Below are positions 1 to 7,753 of a stretch of 7,753 nt of DNA, piece after piece. The stretch lies in IMG/VR virus record IMGVR_UViG_2751185961_000003, positions 1 to 7,753 of that record; one strand, given 5' to 3'. Source of the stretch: a virus (lineage: Duplodnaviria > Heunggongvirae > Uroviricota > Caudoviricetes). Under the pieces are notes generated by a model. The model made no database searches. It worked only from the letters and a program-made list of their open reading frames with translations, and was not told where the DNA came from. Positions within the stretch are counted from its first letter, which is position 1, and the number at the start of each line of letters is the position of its first letter. The position numbers and the translations under genes were made by a program.

Positions 1-95
1 GCCAGGTCATAAACCTCTTCGGCAGTGACATCGCTGTTCAGTCCCATTTCATGGCGATATATGATTTTTTCTACTCGTTGTTTTGTGATCGTCAT
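1..95 (-). CDS. Hypothetical protein, N-terminal part only (runs off the window start); begins MTITKQRVEKIIYRHEMGLNSDVTAEEVYDL
   Basis: ATG at 93-95 on minus strand with purine-rich GGAG/AAGAG upstream; open frame to position 1; same orientation as the neighbouring operon. Not in ORF track because it is truncated. Confidence 0.4.
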   Translation of the reverse strand, partial: MTITKQRVEKIIYRHEMGLNSDVTAEEVYDL

Positions 96-125
96 TTTTC
101 TCTTCACTCCGATATACAAGGATTA

Positions 126-365
126 CTACACCCCCTCTGCTGATTGCGCGAGCTGGATCCCCTGGTTCCATGCCGTCAATTCCGAAGGCTTCGAAAATGC
201 ATCCATTGCCTTCTGGCGTTGCTCCTGCTTACGGCGTTTATTCCATTTTTTCATGAACAACAGTGACAGCCATCGTCCGCTGCTGAACATGATGTAGAAA
301 TAACCAAGAAGTGCCAGGCCGGTGTTCAGGGCCATATCAATCGTTATCGCCGGGTCAATATTCAC
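126..365 (-). CDS. Small predicted membrane protein (79 aa): N-terminal hydrophobic helix then a highly basic K/R-rich segment
   Basis: GTG start at 363-365 preceded by AGGAGG with 6-nt spacer; start overlaps the 3' end of the upstream gene; hydrophobic stretch LALLGYFYIMF followed by KKWNKRRKQEQRQK. Confidence 0.5.
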   Translation of the reverse strand: MNIDPAITIDMALNTGLALLGYFYIMFSSGRWLSLLFMKKWNKRRKQEQRQKAMDAFSKPSELTAWNQGIQLAQSAEGV

Positions 366-657
366 TGCCCACCTCCTGAAAAATCACCGCATGGCCCAGT
401 TTCTCCGCCAGTGCCAGCTCAGCCCTTGCACCTGCCGACTGCTGCCAGCCTTTCAGCATGTAAACCGCATCCACGCAACGGAGCATTGCCATGCAAATAT
501 CCATGTAGTGTGGTTGAGTCAGCCCGTCCGGAAGTACTGCCGGGTTTAAAACGGTATGCCCTTCCCGTTTCAGTACCTCTTCCGCATTGTGAAACGCCTC
601 ACGGTTGAAATTTTTATACCCGGTCATTGGACCGGCGATATAGACTCTCACCCTCAC
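355..657 (-). CDS. DUF4406 / nucleoside 2-deoxyribosyltransferase-like prophage protein (100 aa)
   Basis: Translation MRVRVYIAGPMTGYKNFNREAFHNAEEVLKREGHTVLNPA matches the family's N-terminal YIAGPMTG motif from memory; GTG start at 655-657 with AGGAGG 7 nt upstream; GTGA start/stop overlap with the upstream gene. Confidence 0.65.
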   Translation of the reverse strand: MRVRVYIAGPMTGYKNFNREAFHNAEEVLKREGHTVLNPAVLPDGLTQPHYMDICMAMLRCVDAVYMLKGWQQSAGARAELALAEKLGHAVIFQEVGSEY

Positions 658-1046
658 TCCATCACCTCCTGAAAGTTTCCCCGATAGAACGCCAGCACAC
701 GCTGCATAACTTCGCTCCTCCTGCTCTCACGACAAATTATGTTCTGCCGTCTGTTGTAACGACGTATTTCTCCGTCAGGTAACTTTCGAATCAGTGTCGG
801 GTCAGCAGCCTTCTCCGGTGTCTTACGCCATACGCGATACGCCTGCTCTGATGGAAATACCCCGCAACCAGAGAGCCAGACATCACCACTGGCCGCAAGC
901 GCACCAGATAAACGACGAATAGCGGTCTTACTGACACCCGTTTTATCTGCCAGTTGTCGAAAAGTTTCTCGTCCGCTCAGGCGCACGAATTCCACAATGC
1001 GCGCCTTCACTTCTTCCCGCTCTTCTGGTGTAAATACTTTTGCCAT
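654..1046 (-). CDS. Helix-turn-helix domain protein (about 130 aa), function unknown
   Basis: ATG at 1044-1046 with GGAGG 5 nt upstream; the ORF-track start at 1061 is a TTG extension. HTH-like segment RQLADKTGVSKTAIRRL. Confidence 0.65.
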   Translation of the reverse strand: MAKVFTPEEREEVKARIVEFVRLSGRETFRQLADKTGVSKTAIRRLSGALAASGDVWLSGCGVFPSEQAYRVWRKTPEKAADPTLIRKLPDGEIRRYNRRQNIICRESRRSEVMQRVLAFYRGNFQEVME

Positions 1047-1061
1047 AAGCGCCTCCGGCAA

Positions 1062-1787
1062 TCACTTTTCCGACACAATACGACCGGATGAATCGACAAT
1101 CTGTCGAACAATATCCCGGTGCTTGTTCAGCTCCCGCAGCGCGGCGCAGACTCGCTCCCACTTCTGAACCTGACCTTTTGCCCGGCGCAGCTCGCGGTTA
1201 GCCACATGCAGCGATGGTAAAATCAGACCATCCGGATGTTTTCTGGTGAACGACGGCTGTGACTGCACTGTGACCGCCACACTTTCCGTTTTTATTTCTT
1301 CCTGTGTTTCTGCTTCCCGGACAGGTAACGCAACACCTGCTGGCTGAGGAAAGGCTTTACCATCGGTTTCCGCTACGGATGCAGCTTCCGGCTCTGCCGG
1401 TAAATCAGCGCCCGGTATGCAGTAACGAAATTTACCGCCCTGATTCACGCGAATCAGACGCCCTTTGCTGATTGCCATGGCCAGCGATGAATTCGCCCGG
1501 CGGGAGGTAATCCCGAACATCAGTGCCAGCTCATCCGCCGTTTGTGGGCCATGTTGTTCAATCGCCTCAGTCAGCATTTGCGCTGTCACTTTCGGTACCG
1601 GTGACACCGGTTCACTTTCACCAGCCTGAATCAGCCGCCACATCGAACCCTTGTTATCCGCTTCACCGCGGCGCTTCAGTTTCCACAGTTCGTTGACCGC
1701 ATCTTCACGGCTGATTCCAAGGCGGGCCGCCACTACCTGTGAAGAGGCTCTTTTCAGTGCTTTCAGTGCGTCAAATACGGTTTCCAT
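1062..1787 (-). CDS. Hypothetical prophage protein (about 241 aa) with two winged-helix-like segments; possibly DUF1627-like
   Basis: ATG at 1785-1787 with GGAGG 8 nt upstream; the ORF-track start at 1805 is a TTG extension. Family guess is from memory only. Confidence 0.6.
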
Positions 1788-1820
1788 TAAAATTTCCTCC
1801 GACAAAATCGTTTCTCAGAT

Positions 1821-2387
1821 TCAAATAAAACCAGCTGCCTTCCGGCGTTCGTATTCCTGTTTCAGCCGTTCAATTGGCGTTGGCCCTTGCGGGTGTTTCG
1901 CCCCTTCCAGTTGTCGTCGCACTGGCGGAACACTCATCCCGTTACCAACATGCTTTGCCCATTTCGTCAGTTGCCGTTCCGCAAGTCGTTTTAACTCACC
2001 CTGCGTCATCTGGCGCTCAATCCCTCTGGTACGCATTTCGAGGCAGATGTGGTACAGCACAGGCTGTGGCCACGGGTATTTATCACTCCCGTCGTATCGC
2101 CAGGATTCATTGCGCCAGCGCCGGTACTCTTCCATCACGGCATCCACCGTAAGACCAAATGGATTTGCCCCACTCTCCGAAATCAGCGCAACAAACTCAG
2201 CCAGGTCCGGGGGCCACGTTTCACCCGCCCGGCAGCGGTCCATGCACTGACGGCAGACCAGCCGGATTTGCTGTTCAGTCATCGTGCCAATCTGGGCAAT
2301 CCAGAGCTTCGAAGGTGCGGCCCCGTTCTTCTGAGTCCAGCGGTTCGAATACACCTCCCCCATAAGCTCCCACAGCTTCCAGGCCAT
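1821..2387 (-). CDS. Lambda P-like replication protein (putative DnaB helicase loader)
   Basis: Translation (WIAQIGTMTEQQ..., PPDLAEFVAL, YPW, MTQGELKRLAERQ) aligns by eye with lambda P as I remember it. Start uncertain: ATG 2385-2387 (MAWKLW) or 2361-2363, both with weak SD; the ORF-track N-terminus to 2483 looks non-coding. Confidence 0.65.
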   Translation of the reverse strand: MAWKLWELMGEVYSNRWTQKNGAAPSKLWIAQIGTMTEQQIRLVCRQCMDRCRAGETWPPDLAEFVALISESGANPFGLTVDAVMEEYRRWRNESWRYDGSDKYPWPQPVLYHICLEMRTRGIERQMTQGELKRLAERQLTKWAKHVGNGMSVPPVRRQLEGAKHPQGPTPIERLKQEYERRKAAGFI

Positions 2388-2991
2388 TTCCGTTGCTGAT
2401 AAATCCGTTGTCTCGTTCCCACTGTTCGCGTGCTGCCCGGATTTCCTGAACTGCCCGTGATGCCGTGCCACCTGATGCTGCATGGCTTACCCCCTTGCTG
2501 ACTGGTTTTACCTGTGCCCTGACGTGCTGCACGTGGCGGGCAAATTTCTGCTCCCACTGAACCTGCGTGAAAACCTTCCCCTCCGCCATCCAGTAATCCC
2601 GGAATGCGGCAAGCTCTGCAGGTGTAAATTCCGGCTCAGGCAGAGCCATACCCCACACTGCTGCCCGTTGTCGAAAATCCGACGACGGCTGCCAGACAGT
2701 AGTCATCGAAAATTTCCCGATCGGTTCGCTCAGGCCGTCCAGGTATTCAGGTTCGGCTGTCTGCAACGGCGCACCATGCGACTCACCGGTTGGAGCACTC
2801 TCGCGCATGCGCGCGTTATGTGTGGGGTTTAATTCTGTATCTGTATCTTTATCTGTCGTGACTTGTCGTGACAGATGCGTGACACGCCGTGACATGTCGT
2901 GACATTTCGTGACGCACTCACCAGAAGGTGGATATACACCGCCATCACTGTTGCGATTGGCTGTCCTGAGACCCTGGCAATGGTTCGCCAT
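2275..2991 (-). CDS. DnaT-like C-terminal domain fragment of a replication initiator (YdaU-like); frame lacks its own convincing start
   Basis: Segment GKFSMTTVWQPSSDFRQRAAVWGMALPEPEFTPAELAAFRDYWMAEGKVFTQVQWEQKFARHVQ closely parallels E. coli DnaT (GKFAMYPDWQPDADF...[20 protein letters not shown]) from memory. Upstream part of this frame runs through the iteron array with no credible SD. Confidence 0.6.
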   Translation of the reverse strand: MANHCQGLRTANRNSDGGVYPPSGECVTKCHDMSRRVTHLSRQVTTDKDTDTELNPTHNARMRESAPTGESHGAPLQTAEPEYLDGLSEPIGKFSMTTVWQPSSDFRQRAAVWGMALPEPEFTPAELAAFRDYWMAEGKVFTQVQWEQKFARHVQHVRAQVKPVSKGVSHAASGGTASRAVQEIRAAREQWERDNGFISNGNGLEAVGAYGGGVFEPLDSEERGRTFEALDCPDWHDD

Positions 2992-3041
2992 TTGGGATCA
3001 TTTGGCATGTCATGCCACAATCTGAGCCAGGCATTAGCCAT
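2829..3041 (-). CDS. N-terminal fragment of the replication initiator (YdaU/DUF1376-like), terminated inside the iteron/AT-rich region
   Basis: ATG at 3039-3041 with GAGG 5 nt upstream; conserved-looking MANAWLRLWHDMPNDPKWRTIARVSGQPIATVMAVYIHLL; stop TAA at 2829-2831; a different frame continues into the DnaT-like domain. Confidence 0.55.
   Translation of the reverse strand: MANAWLRLWHDMPNDPKWRTIARVSGQPIATVMAVYIHLLVSASRNVTTCHGVSRICHDKSRQIKIQIQN
2835..2914. repeat. Iteron-like array: six tandem about 10-bp units (consensus tgtCGTGACa) next to an AT-rich CTGTAT-repeat tract; putative replication origin
   Basis: CGTGAC at 2857, 2867, 2878, 2888, 2898, 2908 (spacing 10, 11, 10, 10, 10); each unit has TGTC/GACA dyad arms; CTGTAT tandem at 2835-2846. 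Confidence 0.7.
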
Positions 3042-3109
3042 ACTCACCTCATCTGATACCGAACTTTACCCTCGAACATCCAGAAGAAATCCGGCATGAA
3101 TATTGTTGG

Positions 3110-3535
3110 TCAATGCACGACAACAGCATTACCAGGCTGACCACCACTGTTAGTCAGGGTGCCCCAGGCGATCGCCGCTGCGACAAAATCATCCACATCT
3201 TTCACCAGCCGATCCCTCCGTTCGACGATCTCACGGTAATATTCAGAGCTGTGACTGCGCATACGGGCCACCAGCAGAGGCGGCATTGCCTTTTCGATCG
3301 CCGGTAACAGAGCCTGAATTTTTTCAACAGCATCAGGGGTGTCTTTATCCAGCCAACGGAAAATTTTCTGGGTATTACGAGCCAGGGCTTCCGGATGGCT
3401 GTCGTCGTACAGTTCCGGGAACGTCATTCCCAGCTCGAAATACGCTTTGGTAATTTTCGCAGCCGGTACTTTTTCGCCGTCCGGATGCGCCCAGACATTC
3501 ATCGCCATGCGGATGTGCTCATGTTTGATTTTCAT
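3110..3535 (-). CDS. YdaT-like (CII-like) prophage regulator, 141 aa
   Basis: ATG at 3533-3535 with GGGAG 7 nt upstream; ATGA overlap with the upstream Cro-like gene; N-terminus MKIKHEHI and gene position (Cro-like, this, replication gene) match the Rac ydaS-ydaT-ydaU arrangement as I recall it. Confidence 0.65.
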   Translation of the reverse strand: MKIKHEHIRMAMNVWAHPDGEKVPAAKITKAYFELGMTFPELYDDSHPEALARNTQKIFRWLDKDTPDAVEKIQALLPAIEKAMPPLLVARMRSHSSEYYREIVERRDRLVKDVDDFVAAAIAWGTLTNSGGQPGNAVVVH

Positions 3536-3786
3536 GAATCAACTCCCATCAGCTTTTTCGTGGTAGTTTTATTTCTGCCAATAGTTAATATTGCATCGGC
3601 AGAAAATAATCCGTTTGATGCAAGAGCGATTTTTTCAGCGTAATTGGTTTCACCGGTATATTCAGTGCGCGGCAATTTCCCGTTATTAATCCACTTGTAG
3701 ATTGCTCTTTGGCTGACACCACAAACGTCGGACACAACAGAAACACGAACAGTTTTGATTACATCTTCAAGTGTGTTCTGGTTCAT
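3532..3786 (-). CDS. Cro/YdaS-like HTH regulator (84 aa)
   Basis: ATG at 3784-3786 with GGAG 5 nt upstream; HTH VSDVCGVSQRAIYKWINNGKLP; divergent from the repressor gene. The ORF-track N-terminal extension to 3858 would cross the promoter region. Confidence 0.7.
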   Translation of the reverse strand: MNQNTLEDVIKTVRVSVVSDVCGVSQRAIYKWINNGKLPRTEYTGETNYAEKIALASNGLFSADAILTIGRNKTTTKKLMGVDS

Positions 3787-3802
3787 ACCATCTCCATAAT
3801 GT

Positions 3803-3865
3803 GAACTTTGGGTACATGATATAGCAGAACTGACAGTACATTCAATAGCGAATATCATTGAACTT
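3803..3865. promoter_or_regulatory. Divergent immunity-region promoters with operator-like repeats (PRM-like plus-strand and PR-like minus-strand)
   Basis: Plus: -35 cTGACA 3830-3835, 17-bp spacer, -10 TATCAT 3853-3858, 7 bp to the ATG at 3866 (leaderless geometry). Minus: -35 TTGAAT (plus 3840-3845), -10 TATATC (plus 3818-3823). Repeats GAAC-N5-GTACAT at 3803-3817 and 3827-3841; dyad TTCAAT-N10-ATTGAA at 3841-3862. Confidence 0.5.
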
Positions 3866-4285
3866 ATGGTTCATGAAGATAAAGCGCGTAAAGAGTTCGC
3901 CAGCAGGCTTGCGCTAGCCTGTGAAAACGCTGGTTATGAACAACACGGGAGGCAGGCAGAAATTGCCCGTCGAATGAAATTAACACCAAAAGCGGTCAGT
4001 AAATGGTTTAATGGCGAAACAATTCCTCGACGAGAGAAATTGAGGGAATTAGCAGCACTCATAGGAACAACGCCAACATATCTTTTGGGCGAGGATACAG
4101 AAAGTAGTGCGCAGGCACGCTTCTATCAGGAGTTAAACCCAAAACAAAAAATCATCATTGACCTTCTAGACGAGCTACCTGACAGTGAAACAGATGAGCT
4201 TTTAAAAACTCTTGAGGAAAAAAAACAGAAGTACAATGCAATTTACGAAGAATTAACACGAAAGAAAAAACAAAAAGCCTCTTGA
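3866..4285 (+). CDS. DicA/RacR-type (cI-like) HTH repressor without peptidase domain, 139 aa
   Basis: N-terminal XRE-type HTH (QAEIARRMKLTPKAVSKWFNGETIPRREKLRELAALIGTTPTYLLGED); acidic/coiled C-terminus (LLDELPDSETDELLKTLEEKKQ) with DicA-like architecture; no SD, consistent with a leaderless transcript. Confidence 0.75.
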   Translation: MVHEDKARKEFASRLALACENAGYEQHGRQAEIARRMKLTPKAVSKWFNGETIPRREKLRELAALIGTTPTYLLGEDTESSAQARFYQELNPKQKIIIDLLDELPDSETDELLKTLEEKKQKYNAIYEELTRKKKQKAS

Positions 4286-4373
4286 TCCAGCATAAATCCG
4301 GTAACATCCCTCCGGGTTTGTGCTTCACTTAATCCCTCCTCATTTTTTTAAACATAAAATGTACTAAAAGTAC

Positions 4374-4406
4374 TTTACACAAATGAACAAAAAGTACATC
4401 ATACAT
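4374..4406 (+). promoter_or_regulatory. Candidate left-operon promoter/operator (OL-like): third copy of GAAC-N5-GTACAT
   Basis: GAAC 4385-4388, GTACAT 4394-4399, same spacing as the two copies at 3803-3841; TTTACA at 4374-4379 is a possible -35, with only weak -10 candidates 17 bp downstream; nearby GTACT-AAAA-GTACT at 4361-4375. Confidence 0.35.
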
Positions 4407-4578
4407 CTACCAACCCACCCCGCTCCACAGAACGCCAGGCAATACTTCGAGTTACCAGGCAGTGGCAAGGGGTTAAGTAGCCAGCCCGAGGCGTAAGAAC
4501 ATGACGGCAGGGTTCAACTTTAACTATGCAGCAGGTTTTTGTTCCGCTCCCCCGGCGTTAAGGGGAAATGAGGTCAGC

Positions 4579-4731
4579 ATGGATACTATCGAGCTTGGCA
4601 ACAGCGAATCTCTGGTATGCGGCGTGTTTCCCAACCAGTACGGCACGTTTACCGCGATGACGTATACCAAAAGTAAAACGTTTAAAACCGAAGCTGGCGC
4701 GCATCGCTGGTTAGCAAGAAACTCCGACTGA
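4579..4731 (+). CDS. YdfA-like small protein (DUF1391), 50 aa
   Basis: ATG 4579-4581 with GAGG 5 nt upstream; MDTIELGNSESLVCGVFPNQYGTFTAMTYTKSKTFKTEAGAHRWLARNSD resembles Qin YdfA from memory. ORF-track start at 4501 has no SD. Confidence 0.6.
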   Translation: MDTIELGNSESLVCGVFPNQYGTFTAMTYTKSKTFKTEAGAHRWLARNSD

Positions 4732-4742
4732 TGAGGTTGACG

Positions 4743-5144
4743 ATGGAATTTAAAGATTTACCAGTACCATTCCAGGAAATGGCATCGAATGCGGTTCGCT
4801 CTCAACTGGCGACTCTTGACCTGAGTACCGTAGAAAAAGAAACCATCGATACTATATCCGGTAACGTGCGTCGTGCCTTTATAGGTCTGTATGAAGAGAA
4901 GCGCCTATTCGGCGGACAGAATTCGCCTGAAAACAAGAATCAAGCAAATGATGAGAAGCTGAAACACATTATCGCCTTACTTTTGGAAGACGCAAAACGT
5001 CTACAGCAACTGGAACCAAATGCAGGCACAGAGGCCCGCATTTGGATTGCCATGAAATCACTCAAATGTGAAAGCAGTGATTATTTCAAAACAACAATTA
5101 AAACTACTCAACTTTCGGGAGAGCTACTGAAGAAATTGCCATAA
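4743..5144 (+). CDS. Hypothetical protein (133 aa), no family recognised; sits where ydfB/ydfC lie in Qin
   Basis: ATG 4743-4745 with GAGG 6 nt upstream; alternatively ATG 4731 overlapping the upstream stop (TGATG). Helical-looking, no transmembrane segment. Confidence 0.6.
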   Translation: MEFKDLPVPFQEMASNAVRSQLATLDLSTVEKETIDTISGNVRRAFIGLYEEKRLFGGQNSPENKNQANDEKLKHIIALLLEDAKRLQQLEPNAGTEARIWIAMKSLKCESSDYFKTTIKTTQLSGELLKKLP

Positions 5145-5383
5145 GAGCATGGTCTTTCTCTTGTTCTGCAAGATGAGCATTAATACCTGGTATGGTTTTT
5201 TCAAATTTATCTATCTGTTGAATAACAACTTCGCGGTATACGTTTGTTTTTGTACCACCAAGCGCAGCCGTTAATGCAGAAAGCATATTTAGTATCATAT
5301 CAGTACGATATGAAAAGAATCCTGATAGCTTCATCTTGTTTTTCAATAATAGATTGCAGGGCCTCAATTTGCTTTTTATCCAT
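5104..5383 (-). CDS. AT-rich convergent ORF with frame ambiguity: 27-aa peptide from the SD-supported ATG, or a frameshifted about 90-aa protein
   Basis: AGGAGG (5389-5394) 5 nt upstream of ATG 5381-5383 gives MDKKQIEALQSIIEKQDEAIRILFISY then stop; the 94-aa track ORF is in another frame whose GTG start (5386-5388) abuts the SD. 3' end overlaps the plus-strand gene by 41 nt. Confidence 0.3.
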
Positions 5384-5704
5384 TTCACCCTCCTGAGGGT
5401 TGGTAATTAAGGAGTTCTCCACGGGTCAGGTGGAGTGCGTGCGCCGGACACGGGTGAGCATCCGGCACTGACAGTTTACTGAAAGGATATGTCCCTGAAA
5501 AGTCAGGGCATAACGCGAAAGCGCACGGCGAAATTGGTCTCTCTGTACGGTGTCGTTAAATTTAGTTCGACCGTGCACTTCCGGTTGTGGCACTCCGCGA
5601 AATGGCGCGGCGGTAAGTATGGCTGGGGTTTCCTCCATTGCTCCAGAAAATGCACCGGGTTGTCAGGTTGACCATACGCTTAAGTGACAGCCCCGCCACA
5701 ATAC

Positions 5705-5762
5705 CCATGCGTAGTCTTTGGTGGCATCAGTTCTACTCCGTGACTGCTCTGCCACCCTTTTT
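5705..5762 (+). ncRNA. dicF: DicF-like small RNA (cell-division-inhibiting sRNA homolog)
   Basis: 3' 41 nt (tttggtggcatcagttctactccgtgactgctctgccaccc + T5) about 90% identical to E. coli K-12 DicF as I remember it, with a compensatory stem change (GGCGG/CCGCC to GGTGG/CCACC); located just upstream of a dicB homolog. Confidence 0.55.
5720..5762 (+). terminator. Intrinsic terminator-like hairpin forming the DicF 3' end
   Basis: Stem GGTGGCA (5720-5726) / TGCCACC (5750-5756) followed by CTTTTT (5757-5762). Confidence 0.5.
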
Positions 5763-5944
5763 AAAGTGAATTTTGTGATGCGGTGAATGCGGCTATGCGC
5801 ACGCGGAACAGTTAAAACCGTAAAGTGGTCTTTTACGGGGCGTAACGGGCATCCTTCTGTATTCCGGCGTTAATTGTTAACTGGTTAACGTCACCTGGAG
5901 GCACCAGGCACTGCATCACAAAATTCATTGTTGAGGACGCGATA

Positions 5945-6133
5945 ATGGAAACGTTATTACCAAACGTTAATACGTCTGAAGGTTGTTTTGATATTGGTGT
6001 TCTGCTCAGTAACCGGGAGTTTACGGAAGATGCCATTAAGATGAGAAAATATGAACCTTATCTTCTCAATGATAATTCCATACTTTCCAGAATTGCCCTT
6101 CTTGAACTTGGTATTATCGGAGAACAGCAGTGA
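5945..6133 (+). CDS. dicB: DicB-like cell division inhibitor, 62 aa
   Basis: METLLPNVNTSEGCFDIGVLLSN... closely resembles K-12 DicB N-terminus (MKTLLPNVNTSEGCFEIGV...) from memory; GAGG 8 nt upstream of ATG; follows the dicF-like element. Confidence 0.8.
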   Translation: METLLPNVNTSEGCFDIGVLLSNREFTEDAIKMRKYEPYLLNDNSILSRIALLELGIIGEQQ

Positions 6134-6318
6134 CTTCAGCGTTTGCACTGATAATGACCGTTTTTCTTATAACGGGTGAGCCGCAGAATGTGATTACCGG
6201 AATTTATGACAGTAAGTCATCCTGCATTCAGGTAAGGGACGAACAAAAAATCCCCGGTGAATGCCTCCCGTTAAAAAAAGTATCGCTGTACCTGAATAAC
6301 GAAACACCGGCTGGATAA
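6130..6318 (+). CDS. YdfD-like small protein (62 aa)
   Basis: GTG start overlapping the dicB stop (GTGA) with GGAG 7 nt upstream; MTSAFALIMTVFLITGEP... has a hydrophobic N-terminus and sits where ydfD follows dicB in Qin. Confidence 0.6.
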   Translation: MTSAFALIMTVFLITGEPQNVITGIYDSKSSCIQVRDEQKIPGECLPLKKVSLYLNNETPAG

Positions 6319-6410
6319 CCCGCCAGCCATATTAACGCCATACCAACGGATTAAAAATGCCAGCAATGGCAGGAATTTGTTCATCCTTAAAATGGTTATG
6401 AGGTTTATCA

Positions 6411-7753
6411 ATGAACGCTGATAAAGAAGAAATTGCACTATATTACGAAGCCAAAAATGACAAAGTCAGAAAACGCCTTGGGATTAAAGGTGGTTTTTAC
6501 TGGCGCACAGCAAAAAAATTATCGGTTGCAATATCACGCGGTGTTGCTGCAATGGACGATGCCGGATTTGACGAAGAGGATTTTAAAAAACCCATCCGCG
6601 TCCATTTACCCGTTGTGAATGACCTTCCACCGGAAGGTGTGTTTGATACTGAATTCTGCAACCGATACGAAAAAGGCGGAGAAGATGGTATCACAATGAT
6701 ATTTATAGCGCCCTCCCCCTCAGTTCAGGACAAACCAGCCAGCACTGACAATACCAACGTCAATGGCGAAGACATGGCTGAGATTGAGGATAATATGCTC
6801 CTGCCGATTTCCGGTCAGGAACTGCCCATTCGCTGGCTTGCGCAACATGGCAGCGAAAAACCGGTAACGCACGTTTCACGAGAAGAACTTCAGGCATTAC
6901 ATATCGCACGAGCTGAAGAACTACCGGCTGTTACTGGCCTGGCTATTTCCCACAACACAAAGCTGCTCGACCCGCTGGAGATTCGCGACCTTCACAAATT
7001 GGTACGCGACACTGACAAAGTTTTCCCTAATCCCGTTAATTCCAGTCTGGGGTTCATGACTGCTTTTTTCGAAGCATACCTGGACACTGACTATACCGAT
7101 CGAGGTCTGCTGACAAAAGAGTGGATGAAAGGAAATCGTGTTTCTCGCATCACCCGCACGGCTTCCGGTGCAAATGCCGGTGGCGGAAATAAAACCGATC
7201 GTAATCCTGACTTAGTACACACCCTCGATACTCTGGATGTGGAGGCTGCAGCAGCCACGCTTCCGATGGATTTTAATATTTATGAAATTCCCGGGAGCGT
7301 TTATCGTCGCGCAAAAGAAATCGTCCTGAAAAAAGAAAGTCCGTTCAGGGAATGGTCCGCAGCACTTCGCGCAACCCCTGGTATCCTGGACTATTCCCGC
7401 GCAGCTATTTTTGCACTTATCCGAAGCGCCCACCCTGAGTTTTATCACTACCCGGGGCGCCTTCAGGGGTATATCAATGCCAACCTGACAGAAACTGATC
7501 ACGAGAATCCCACAGCTGAAACGCTCATGGCTGCCCGGCATACACCGGAAAAAGATATCCTGGAAGAAATTAACGGCGGACTGGCTGCTGAGTGCAAAAC
7601 AGAAGAAGAAAAAAATGATGAAGATAACCCGCAGCCGCTGGATGACAAGTCACAGGTAAAAGTTACCGCTGACGAAGTAAACAAAATTATGCAGGCAGCC
7701 AATATCAGCCAGCCTGACGCCGATAAGTTGCTTGCTGCCTCTCGCGGAGAATT
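6411..7753 (+). CDS. Large RecE-like (exodeoxyribonuclease VIII, N-terminal region) ORF, truncated at the window end (447 codons seen, no stop)
   Basis: ATG 6411 with GAGG 7 nt upstream; my own translation is open to position 7753. Segments NVNGEDMAEIEDNMLLPISGQELPIRWLAQHGSEKPVTHVSR and KLLAASRGE match my recollection of Rac RecE. Absent from the ORF track because it lacks a stop. Confidence 0.55.
   Translation, partial: MNADKEEIALYYEAKNDKVRKRLGIKGGFYWRTAKKLSVAISRGVAAMDDAGFDEEDFKKPIRVHLPVVNDLPPEGVFDTEFCNRYEKGGEDGITMIFIAPSPSVQDKPASTDNTNVNGEDMAEIEDNMLLPISGQELPIRWLAQHGSEKPVTHVSREELQALHIARAEELPAVTGLAISHNTKLLDPLEIRDLHKLVRDTDKVFPNPVNSSLGFMTAFFEAYLDTDYTDRGLLTKEWMKGNRVSRITRTASGANAGGGNKTDRNPDLVHTLDTLDVEAAAATLPMDFNIYEIPGSVYRRAKEIVLKKESPFREWSAALRATPGILDYSRAAIFALIRSAHPEFYHYPGRLQGYINANLTETDHENPTAETLMAARHTPEKDILEEINGGLAAECKTEEEKNDEDNPQPLDDKSQVKVTADEVNKIMQAANISQPDADKLLAASRGE

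Follow-up and report, generated by a model that had tools for sequence, protein, structure and literature searches.

A 7,753-bp draft contig carrying the early region (immunity, replication, dicF/dicB) of a common lambdoid prophage of Escherichia coli, CP-933P/Qin-like in type

The virus record IMGVR_UViG_2751185961_000003 (Caudoviricetes) comprises a stretch of 7,753 nucleotides, hereafter the window, whose genes recall the Escherichia coli K-12 prophages Rac and Qin as well as phage lambda. The question raised by this locus is whether such a patchwork marks an unusual hybrid or is the normal state of a lambdoid prophage. A preliminary description of the sequence had stressed the first possibility, since only K-12 references were used. 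By sequence identity, the window is the entire contig MECV01000067.1 (7753 bp) of the short-read draft assembly GCA_001722155.1, and it holds the early genes for immunity and replication, together with dicF and dicB, of a common lambdoid E. coli prophage of the CP-933P/Qin-like kind. We consider it about 90% probable that the patchwork is ordinary, long-known modular mosaicism, of an already known kind and in a very common arrangement. The lineage is, with high confidence, the widespread dicB type that is best represented in the literature by the CP-933P/Sp12 and PPompW prophages. That lambdoid prophages are modular mosaics has stood in the textbooks for decades.

The window was compared with 5426 complete E. 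coli genomes and 50,697 phage records, scanned for families in Pfam, NCBIfam, Rfam, PADLOC and PHROG, and aligned pairwise (BLASTP, tblastn and DNA) with K-12 Rac, Qin and lambda. The colinear relatives were all recovered by looking up exact proteins in draft and metagenome assemblies. Four of these contigs (L007, L009, L010 and L013) are colinear with the window at 99.8% identity over positions 1-2904, 98.1% over 2879-4902 and 96.8% over 5381-7753, which covers about 94% of its length; over 1-4500 and 5850-7753 they are approximately 100% identical to it. L008 is likewise approximately 100% identical over 750-4638 and 5600-7753, and L021 is 100% identical over 4726-7753. The same gene order is annotated in the complete E. 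coli genomes JE86-ST05, SW070917, 2013C-3342 and E2348/69, in draft and metagenome contigs with an identical repressor, and in vB_EcoS-689R5 and PPompW. Thus, the patchwork and the alternating best matches noted in the preliminary description are real, but they do not make a special hybrid, because the order recurs in hundreds of genomes. A query of ydaT, the initiator gene and P was covered to at least 80% in 656 of the 5426 complete genomes, and one of dicB, ydfD and the exonuclease gene in 608. The immunity cassette was present at 92% identity in 1047 genomes and a cassette of two small genes, orf133 and orf94, at 99.2% identity in 124. In E. coli 042 the immunity cassette is located on a Rac-type backbone (ydaT-ydaU-ydaV, kilR, recE). 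The exact repressor protein occurs in 395 blocks of public assemblies. The copy in the window differs from its closest relatives in only two ways, by crossovers in the ydfA region and by a private deletion of 271 bp.

The ends of blocks of at least 95% identity between the window and 24 related loci gave the following breakpoints:

620-720, boundary of the DUF4406 and DUF977 genes
3541-3552, YdaT operator at the cro/ydaT junction, right limit of the immunity cassette
4408-4628, immediately following the PL-like promoter (4374-4402), left limit of the immunity cassette
4704-4738, end of ydfA and start of orf133
4903
5532-5734, extending to the dicF 5′ end
5825-5866
6387-6405, just before the start of the exonuclease gene

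The junctions that had been proposed near 4731-5400 and 6319-6410 correspond to the breaks at 4704-4738, 4903 and 5532-5734 and to that at 6387-6405, respectively. The strongest ones, at 3541-3552, about 4408 and 620-720, had gone unnoticed, as had the 271-bp deletion; the two limits of the immunity cassette, 3541-3552 and about 4408, are the sharpest of all. A mismatch map placed a fine-scale recombination zone at 4594-4787, in and near ydfA. At single-base resolution the window is of the L008 type up to 4638, of the JE86 type at approximately 4594-4786 and of the L021/L017 type from 4726 onwards. This places the crossovers within a stretch of approximately 400 bp of shared ydfA homology. Pervasive homology-driven mosaicism among temperate and defective E. 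coli prophages has been documented experimentally and genomically and has been quantified for this species (PMC3945230), and the crossovers of the ydfA region fit that kind of exchange.

The immunity region and the adjoining ydaT contain the following features:

3110-3535, minus strand, YdaT, CII-equivalent regulator of the CP-933P type (PF06254, 42.8 bits against a cut-off of 21)
3525-3542, YdaT operator OM, TTGATTTTCATGAATCAA, a match without mismatch to TTGATTN6AATCAA
3532-3786, minus strand, helix-turn-helix (HTH) regulator of 84 amino acids in the Cro position, present as an 84-amino-acid gene in all relatives (phrog_35; weak HTH_17 match)
3787-3865, divergent promoter/operator region of 79 bp, putatively PR-like and PRM-like
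3866-4285, plus strand, prophage repressor of 139 amino acids, XRE/HTH_3 (PF01381)
4359-4407, plus strand, PL/dicBp-like promoter (4374-4402) with operator-like sites, left limit of the immunity cassette

The YdaT-like gene was correctly recognised from the outset. Its product is approximately 92% identical to the crystallised YdaT of CP-933P (PDB 8bt1) and 31% identical to Rac YdaT, the same value that is reported for CP-933P YdaT (PMC8630535). A high-affinity YdaT operator, 5′-TTGATTN6AATCAA-3′, has been defined and placed at the end of the cro-like gene (PMC9986795), and the OM of the window sits at the cro/ydaT junction, exactly where that study places the CP-933P operator. Its PF06254 score, together with a cognate operator where the upstream cro-like gene ends, assigns the protein to the YdaT family. 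The reading of ydaS/ydaT as a toxin-antitoxin pair was rejected, as it is refuted in PMC8630535. OM coincides with the most recurrent breakpoint (3541-3552) and is part of the 30-bp island at the ydaT start, where identity to Rac is 97%; to judge by this sequence, a conserved regulatory site appears to serve as a module linker.

The 84-residue protein had been described as Cro/YdaS-like. It does share phrog_35 with Rac YdaS, but its score against Pfam YdaS (PF15943) was 12.2 bits with a cut-off of 30 (E=0.17), and BLASTP gave no match to YdaS, DicC or lambda Cro. Homology to YdaS would be remote at best, and the equivalence is positional. The repressor, in turn, cannot be named dicA: it is 27% identical to DicA over 109 amino acids and reached 57.4 bits in NCBIfam NF007257, where the cut-off is 101. 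It is best regarded, from its sequence, as an XRE-family protein distantly related to DicA and in the same position. Three TGAAC-N5-GTTCA-like sites at 3802, 3826 and 3859 (cluster 3802-3873) lie between the cro-like and repressor genes, and one or two such palindromes are found at 4359-4398, in the PL/dicBp-like promoter. From 4408, immediately after the -10 element of the PL-like promoter, the window is again homologous to prophages with different immunity types. The cassette 3548-4407, with cro, the divergent promoters, the repressor gene and the PL-like promoter, is the classical imm unit of heteroimmune lambdoid phages.

Some observations weigh against an ordinary and widespread prophage. 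The preliminary description had named a single known prophage colinear over the whole window as what would speak against a special hybrid, and this was nearly found, in draft contigs at 97-100% identity over about 94% of the length; whole-window megablast, however, gave no single colinear place with at least 80% coverage in the complete genomes or the phage records. Apart from the source, no sampled contig matches through 4903-5380 together with the immunity region, and the exact combination of alleles was unseen elsewhere. The window derives from a short-read draft, so that its joins are provisional. Promoter-like matches for sigma-70 were not enriched (7 found, 8.3 expected in shuffled sequence), and matches to the operator pattern were modestly enriched over the window (8 against 4.1), so that only their positions argue for function. 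A generic terminator scan showed no enrichment over shuffles either.

The second difference from the relatives affects the replication module, which reads as follows:

2275-3041, minus strand, disrupted gene of a replication initiator with a DnaT DNA-binding domain (PF17948 DnaT; PHROG 'replication initiation protein')
2799-2913, minus strand, putative origin inside the initiator gene, with iterons, an AT-rich tract and a GC palindrome
1821-2282, minus strand, lambda-P-like helicase loader, annotated with 153 amino acids (PF06992, 58.3 bits against a cut-off of 26)

In every relative examined the intact initiator has 345-347 amino acids. Between motif 4 of the first iteron array and motif 3 of the second, 271 bp are missing in the window; the deletion and the resulting frameshift were read directly from the sequence and mapped by BLAST, with the junction at about 2879-2904 and the crossover within a shared identity of approximately 8 bp, CGTGTCAC. 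The frame shifts after codon 54 and ends 16 aberrant codons later, at a stop at about 2829. What is left are the N-terminal 54 codons and, in another frame, the C-terminal 209 codons; the interrupted gene is spread over 2829-3047 and 2275-2991. An intact short isoform was rejected as an explanation, 271 not being a multiple of 3 and the stop following after 16 aberrant codons. The 30-nt sequence across the deletion junction had no exact match in the genome and metagenome contigs, and the best complete-genome match includes the extra 271 bp; among the assemblies searched, the deletion thus appears private to this copy. Since the initiator is frameshifted, the prophage copy is probably replication-defective, that is, unable to replicate autonomously unless complemented.

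In lambdoid phages the origin, made up of iterons and an AT-rich tract, lies within the initiator gene, as lambda ori does in O (PMC7466680). The same layout of phased repeats and an AT-rich tract inside the initiator reading frame was found here. The window has six phased GTCACG iterons at 2857-2913 with a spacing of 10-11 bp, followed by a tract of approximately 30 bp (about 2820-2856, 76% AT) and by the GC palindrome CGCGCGCATGCGCG at 2799-2815. The intact relatives carry on the coding strand two arrays of (T)GTCAC(G), with 6 and 5 copies, 10-11 bp spacing and a distance of 229 bp between the arrays; the AT-rich tract and the palindrome come after the second array. All ten GTCACG copies of the 12.4-kb locus L007 fall in the initiator gene, on one strand (L007 4700-5050). 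By analogy with lambda, the iteron region would act as a replication origin and be bound by the initiator. No description of the GTCACG iteron type was found in the literature searched.

The 'O' protein of phage vB_EcoS-689R5 (L027 2248-3318) is 96% identical to the window initiator over its first 53 amino acids and has the iteron segment in common, while its C-terminal half is different and no P gene follows. Because the N-terminus and the iterons are shared in this way but not the C-terminus and P, the comparison supports an initiator of two domains, in which the N-terminal part would be origin-specific and the C-terminal part loader-specific, and it suggests that the iteron region may be an intragenic domain-swap point. 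The DnaT-type initiator and P were found together in every locus examined, and they are one replication module which replaces ydaU and ydaV of Rac jointly. The proposal that a loader had been exchanged behind a retained YdaU falls with this observation. Nor is the initiator YdaU-like: the intact relative is without DUF1376 (no PF07120 at E<=1; Rac YdaU scores 92 bits), BLASTP gave E=0.13, and the only link to YdaU is a remote C-terminal one via phrog_2509. The lambda-P-like loader, on the other hand, was correctly named. It is assigned to the lambda P family by its Pfam score and to phrog_109 'P-like helicase loader' at E=4.5e-54, with 25% identity to lambda P, and is predicted to bind DnaB. 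Its start is ambiguous, as the reading frame is open upstream to 2483 and annotations give 140, 153 or 180 amino acids; the Pfam match begins upstream of the 153-amino-acid start, in the frame overlapping the 3′ end of the initiator gene. It is an even call whether this DnaT-initiator/P module uses an apparently uncharacterised origin in which two phased GTCACG arrays serve as recombination sites, both for domain swaps and for inactivating deletions between the arrays.

Could the prophage nevertheless replicate, either by means of a C-terminal DnaT reading frame (2275-2991) or by a co-resident initiator acting in trans on the six-iteron origin? The fused array does retain six phased iterons, the AT-rich tract and the palindrome, and an ATG-initiated frame of 238 amino acids still holds the whole DnaT domain. 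Exonuclease genes of other types (E2348/69, JE86) match the last 99 bp of the window (7655-7753) at 99-100% identity, which suggests that the contig ends at a repeat shared among co-resident prophages, and further similar prophages in the same genome might supply the protein. However, the N-terminal 54 residues cut off by the frameshift are the very part common to the vB_EcoS-689R5 'O' protein with the same iterons, which implies that they belong to the origin-binding domain. The 238-residue frame starts inside the upstream reading frame, and an exact look-up gave no gene call on record for it. We regard continued replication competence as unlikely.

Less probable still is that short-read assembly of a genome with several similar prophages created the mosaic joins, the deletion or both as artefacts. 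The window being a complete draft contig, the repeat at its end and a deletion junction found nowhere else are what such an error might produce. Against this, the identity of about 8 bp at the junction is far below the k-mers of assemblers, which makes a collapse unlikely; the joins of the ydfA region are spanned by independent genomes (JE86 over 4526-5532, L021 over 4448-7753 and L012 over 720-4867), and assemblers usually break at repeats instead of mis-joining them. We therefore hold an artefact to be quite improbable.

The leftward operon runs into a truncated gene:

6411-7753, plus strand, N-terminal 447 codons of an exonuclease of 785 amino acids, running off the contig end (PF06630)

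The part in the window is 99.8% identical to the 785-residue protein of L009 (L009 8494-10851). It had been called RecE-like, and this holds for its N-terminal region: PF06630, the N-terminal region of Exonuc_VIII, matched residues 56-189 at 114 bits (cut-off 25), and residues 58-447 are 51% identical to RecE residues 50-465. The name does not hold for the protein as a whole, because the full-length relative lacks the RecE catalytic domain and a recT. This test was made on the full-length relative, the C-terminal domain falling outside the window. The 785-residue relative aligns to RecE only up to residue 592 and has PF16473, an Rv2179c-like DEDDh 3′-5′ exonuclease domain, at 603-775, whereas Rac RecE has PF12684, a PD-(D/E)XK domain, at 615-850. 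In the RecE equivalog NF007259 it scored 822 bits, with a cut-off of 1269, over model positions 1-406 of 877. No recT partner was found in the relatives, where excisionase (xis) and integrase (int) genes follow the exonuclease gene. The C-terminal part of the relative is 88% identical to a YdfE-type exonuclease whose N-terminus is the Qin ydfE pseudogene. In full-length relatives the gene thus looks, from these alignments, like an intragenic hybrid of a RecE-like, non-catalytic N-terminal region and a YdfE-family DEDDh C-terminus. A PDB sequence search with the full-length exonuclease gave no match. The annotation 'exodeoxyribonuclease VIII' is misleading for this gene.

With which known prophage should the window then be compared? 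At the DNA level, K-12 Rac and Qin match the window only in short, patchy stretches of 76-90% identity. Those to Rac are confined to ydaW (76-84%), the 30-bp island at the ydaT start, the ydaG/ydaF region (85-89%), the sequence upstream of kilS/kilR (76%) and 453 bp of recE (87.6%); those to Qin comprise ydfA (90%), the spacer through dicF to the dicB start (83%) and 49 bp after ydfD. Lambda gave no DNA match, and no tblastn match at E<1e-3. The closest described prophage is not Rac but CP-933P of E. coli O157:H7 EDL933, equivalent to Sp12 of Sakai, with which the window shares YdaT at approximately 92% and an identical OM at the cro/ydaT junction, as compared indirectly, via the PDB chain and CP-933P-like contigs and not the EDL933 sequence. 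In CP-933P, the immunity region is described as having CI, Cro and CII analogues, with an o homologue next to them on one flank and dicB/kil on the opposite flank (PMC8630535). Contigs with the CP-933P-type paaR2-paaA2-parE2 genes (L017, L018 and L020) share at least 95% identity with the window over 620-3549, that is, in ydaT, initiator, P, DUF1627 and DUF977; L017 and L018 do so over 4704-6387 as well, from orf133 to ydfD, and L020 ends at 5866. The window differs from CP-933P in its immunity cassette, which holds the 84-residue Cro-position protein and the 139-residue repressor without the PaaA2-ParE2 pair, in the exonuclease N-terminus, which is RecE-like rather than of the YdfE_N type, and in the 271-bp deletion of the initiator gene.

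The INPHARED records LC567822/ON470583 (PPompW prophages and induced phages such as vB_EcoS-689R5) display the same framework of int-xis-exonuclease-ydfD-dicB-...-repressor, cro-cII/ydaT-initiator. Amino acid identities of PPompW to the window are 100% for DicB, 95% for YdfD and 89% for P. Both PPompW and vB_EcoS-689R5 have other immunity cassettes, of the dicA/dicC type or others, and cover 35-44% of the window DNA; vB_EcoS-689R5 differs further in its initiator C-terminus and the absence of P. Qin has the same order of repressor, ydfA, dicF, dicB, ydfD and exonuclease gene, but the Qin genes ydfB and ydfC are replaced by orf133 and orf94, the exonuclease N-terminus of the window is not of the YdfE type, and Qin DicC had no detectable match in the window. 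Rac resembles the window in overall layout and in YdaT (31%), YdaW (58%), YdaF (78%) and the N-terminal region of RecE (51%); its replication module, in contrast, is YdaU (DUF1376) with the DnaC-like YdaV. Homologues of Rac kilR, ydaE, racC and recT were not detected in the window, and sieB had no BLASTP or DNA match there. Like lambda with its O and P (PMC7466680), the window has an initiator gene that contains phased iterons with an AT-rich tract and precedes a P-family loader gene overlapping the initiator stop, and it shares the logic of an initiator whose N-terminal domain is origin-specific and whose C-terminal domain is matched to the loader. Unlike lambda, the window initiator has a DnaT domain and is not of the O family, with no Phage_rep_O match seen; the GTCACG motif and the two-array arrangement differ, P is 25% identical, and there is no DNA similarity.

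An unusual recent hybrid of a Rac right arm with a lambda-type loader and of a Qin dicB operon with Rac recE would account for best protein matches that alternate between Rac (YdaT, YdaW), lambda (P), Qin (DicA, YdfA, DicB, YdfD) and RecE (exonuclease N-terminus), and for the 453-bp stretch of recE, but it is highly improbable and largely refuted by the colinear relatives, as identities to all three are too low for a recent parent (25-61% in amino acids for most genes, DNA patchy or absent), the initiator is not YdaU and always accompanies P in the loci examined, the whole order recurs at 97-100% in other assemblies and in hundreds of complete genomes, and the exonuclease gene directly after ydfD follows the Qin order (ydfD, ydfE) and not that of Rac, where recE follows racC and with which it had been equated.

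The remainder of the leftward operon contains the following features:

4579-4731, plus strand, YdfA/YdaF family protein, DUF1391 (PF07151), 86% identical to Qin YdfA and 78% to Rac YdaF
4743-5144, plus strand, orf133, no assigned function (phrog_1363)
5104-5388, minus strand, antisense orf94, 76-92 amino acids as annotated elsewhere (phrog_18692; annotated in E2348/69 and JE86)
5398-5705, plus strand, conserved untranslated spacer upstream of dicF, precursor RNA (part of the 659-nt Qin match, 83%)
5706-5757, plus strand, DicF small RNA (Rfam RF00039, 58.9 bits against a cut-off of 48, E=2.8e-11)
5945-6133, plus strand, DicB cell-division inhibitor (PF05358, 129.5 bits against 27, full length, E=3.7e-38)
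6130-6318, plus strand, YdfD family protein, DUF1482 (PF07358), 44% identical to Qin YdfD

The order ydfA, dicF, dicB, ydfD had been read correctly, all four scoring above their family cut-offs (DUF1391, RF00039, PF05358 and DUF1482), and so had the replacement of ydfB and ydfC by unrelated content: orf133 and orf94, which are convergent and overlap, show no similarity to YdfB or YdfC. The exact orf133 protein adjoins at least 4 different immunity cassettes. In exact look-ups its 133-amino-acid version was found, and nothing was on record for a 137-amino-acid version. In the same slot Rac has the antisense gene sieB and other relatives an antisense reading frame of 148 amino acids. Neither orf133 and orf94 nor the alternative cassettes of the relatives matched Pfam, NCBIfam or PADLOC. 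A role of this slot in defence or exclusion, or as a moron, is a positional guess, made because Rac sieB occupies the same position.

A single match of 659 nt, 83% identical, extends in the Qin ydfC-dicF-dicB region from the spacer through dicF into the dicB start. DicF is an antisense regulator of ftsZ, and DicB a MinC-dependent inhibitor of division. The DicF match is full-length (model 1-52 of 52) and lies 188 nt upstream of dicB, which identifies the gene as dicF; DicB, 61% identical to Qin DicB, is equally a true member of its family. The DicF allele differs from that of K-12 in the 5′ 13 nt, and its terminator stem shows a compensatory change from GGCGG/CCGCC to GGTGG/CCACC. Since the 5′ end of K-12 DicF is used for some targets, the target range of this allele may differ from that of K-12. 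The DicF-type terminator hairpin and the 3′ flank TTTTTAAAGTGAATTTTGTGA (window 5752-5929) recur in the kilS small RNA region of Rac (L004 7250-7520), and KilS looks like a positional and partial sequence counterpart of DicF.

Downstream of P, the rightward operon continues with accessory genes:

1062-1805, minus strand, DUF1627 protein, YdaW-like (PF07789, E=5e-83; 58% amino acid identity to Rac YdaW)
654-1061, minus strand, DUF977 / Ren-like protein (PF06163, E=2.5e-40; phrog_142 'Ren-like exclusion protein'), 27% identical to lambda Ren
355-657, minus strand, DUF4406 protein of 100 amino acids, related to nucleoside 2-deoxyribosyltransferase (PF14359, E=7e-37; phrog_355)
126-365, minus strand, DUF4752 protein of 79 amino acids (PF15944, E=2.5e-23)
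1-96, minus strand, 3′ part of a hypothetical gene of 104 amino acids running off the contig end (homologous 104-amino-acid gene called in L007, L009, L013 and JE86)

The working of this early region may be depicted as follows. The XRE repressor and the Cro-position regulator would be transcribed divergently from the 79-bp operator region. As judged from the work on CP-933P (PMC8630535, PMC9986795) and from lambda, the repressor would shut PR and PL, and upon derepression the Cro-like protein and YdaT, the CII equivalent, would set the switch. The rightward operon would then express YdaT, the two-domain initiator with its iteron origin, the P-like loader and the accessory genes, the initiator binding the iterons and recruiting DnaB through the loader. 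The leftward operon would be read from the PL/dicBp-like promoter through YdfA, the variable cassette, DicF, DicB and YdfD to the large exonuclease. Homologous recombination at short conserved linkers, namely the YdaT operator, the PL transcript start, ydfA, the dicF flanks and the exonuclease start, would exchange functional cassettes among co-circulating prophages. In the present copy, crossovers in the ydfA region would have joined an immunity and replication half of the L008/L012 type to a left operon of the L021 type.

As a discovery the arrangement carries little weight; its practical use lies in annotation. For this very common class of prophages, K-12 Rac, Qin and lambda serve badly as references and the CP-933P/Sp12 type is the right comparator, and the labels 'YdaU-like', 'RecE-like' and 'toxin YdaT' are misleading here. 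The breakpoints at boundaries of functional units, such as the YdaT operator, the PL transcript start and gene starts, illustrate the exchange of imm cassettes. Only the iteron architecture of this type of initiator and the deletion between the arrays are mildly new. The deletion is a small, concrete example of a possible loss of autonomous replication, and if the proposed role of the arrays is true, recombination between them would be a possible route by which these prophages turn cryptic.

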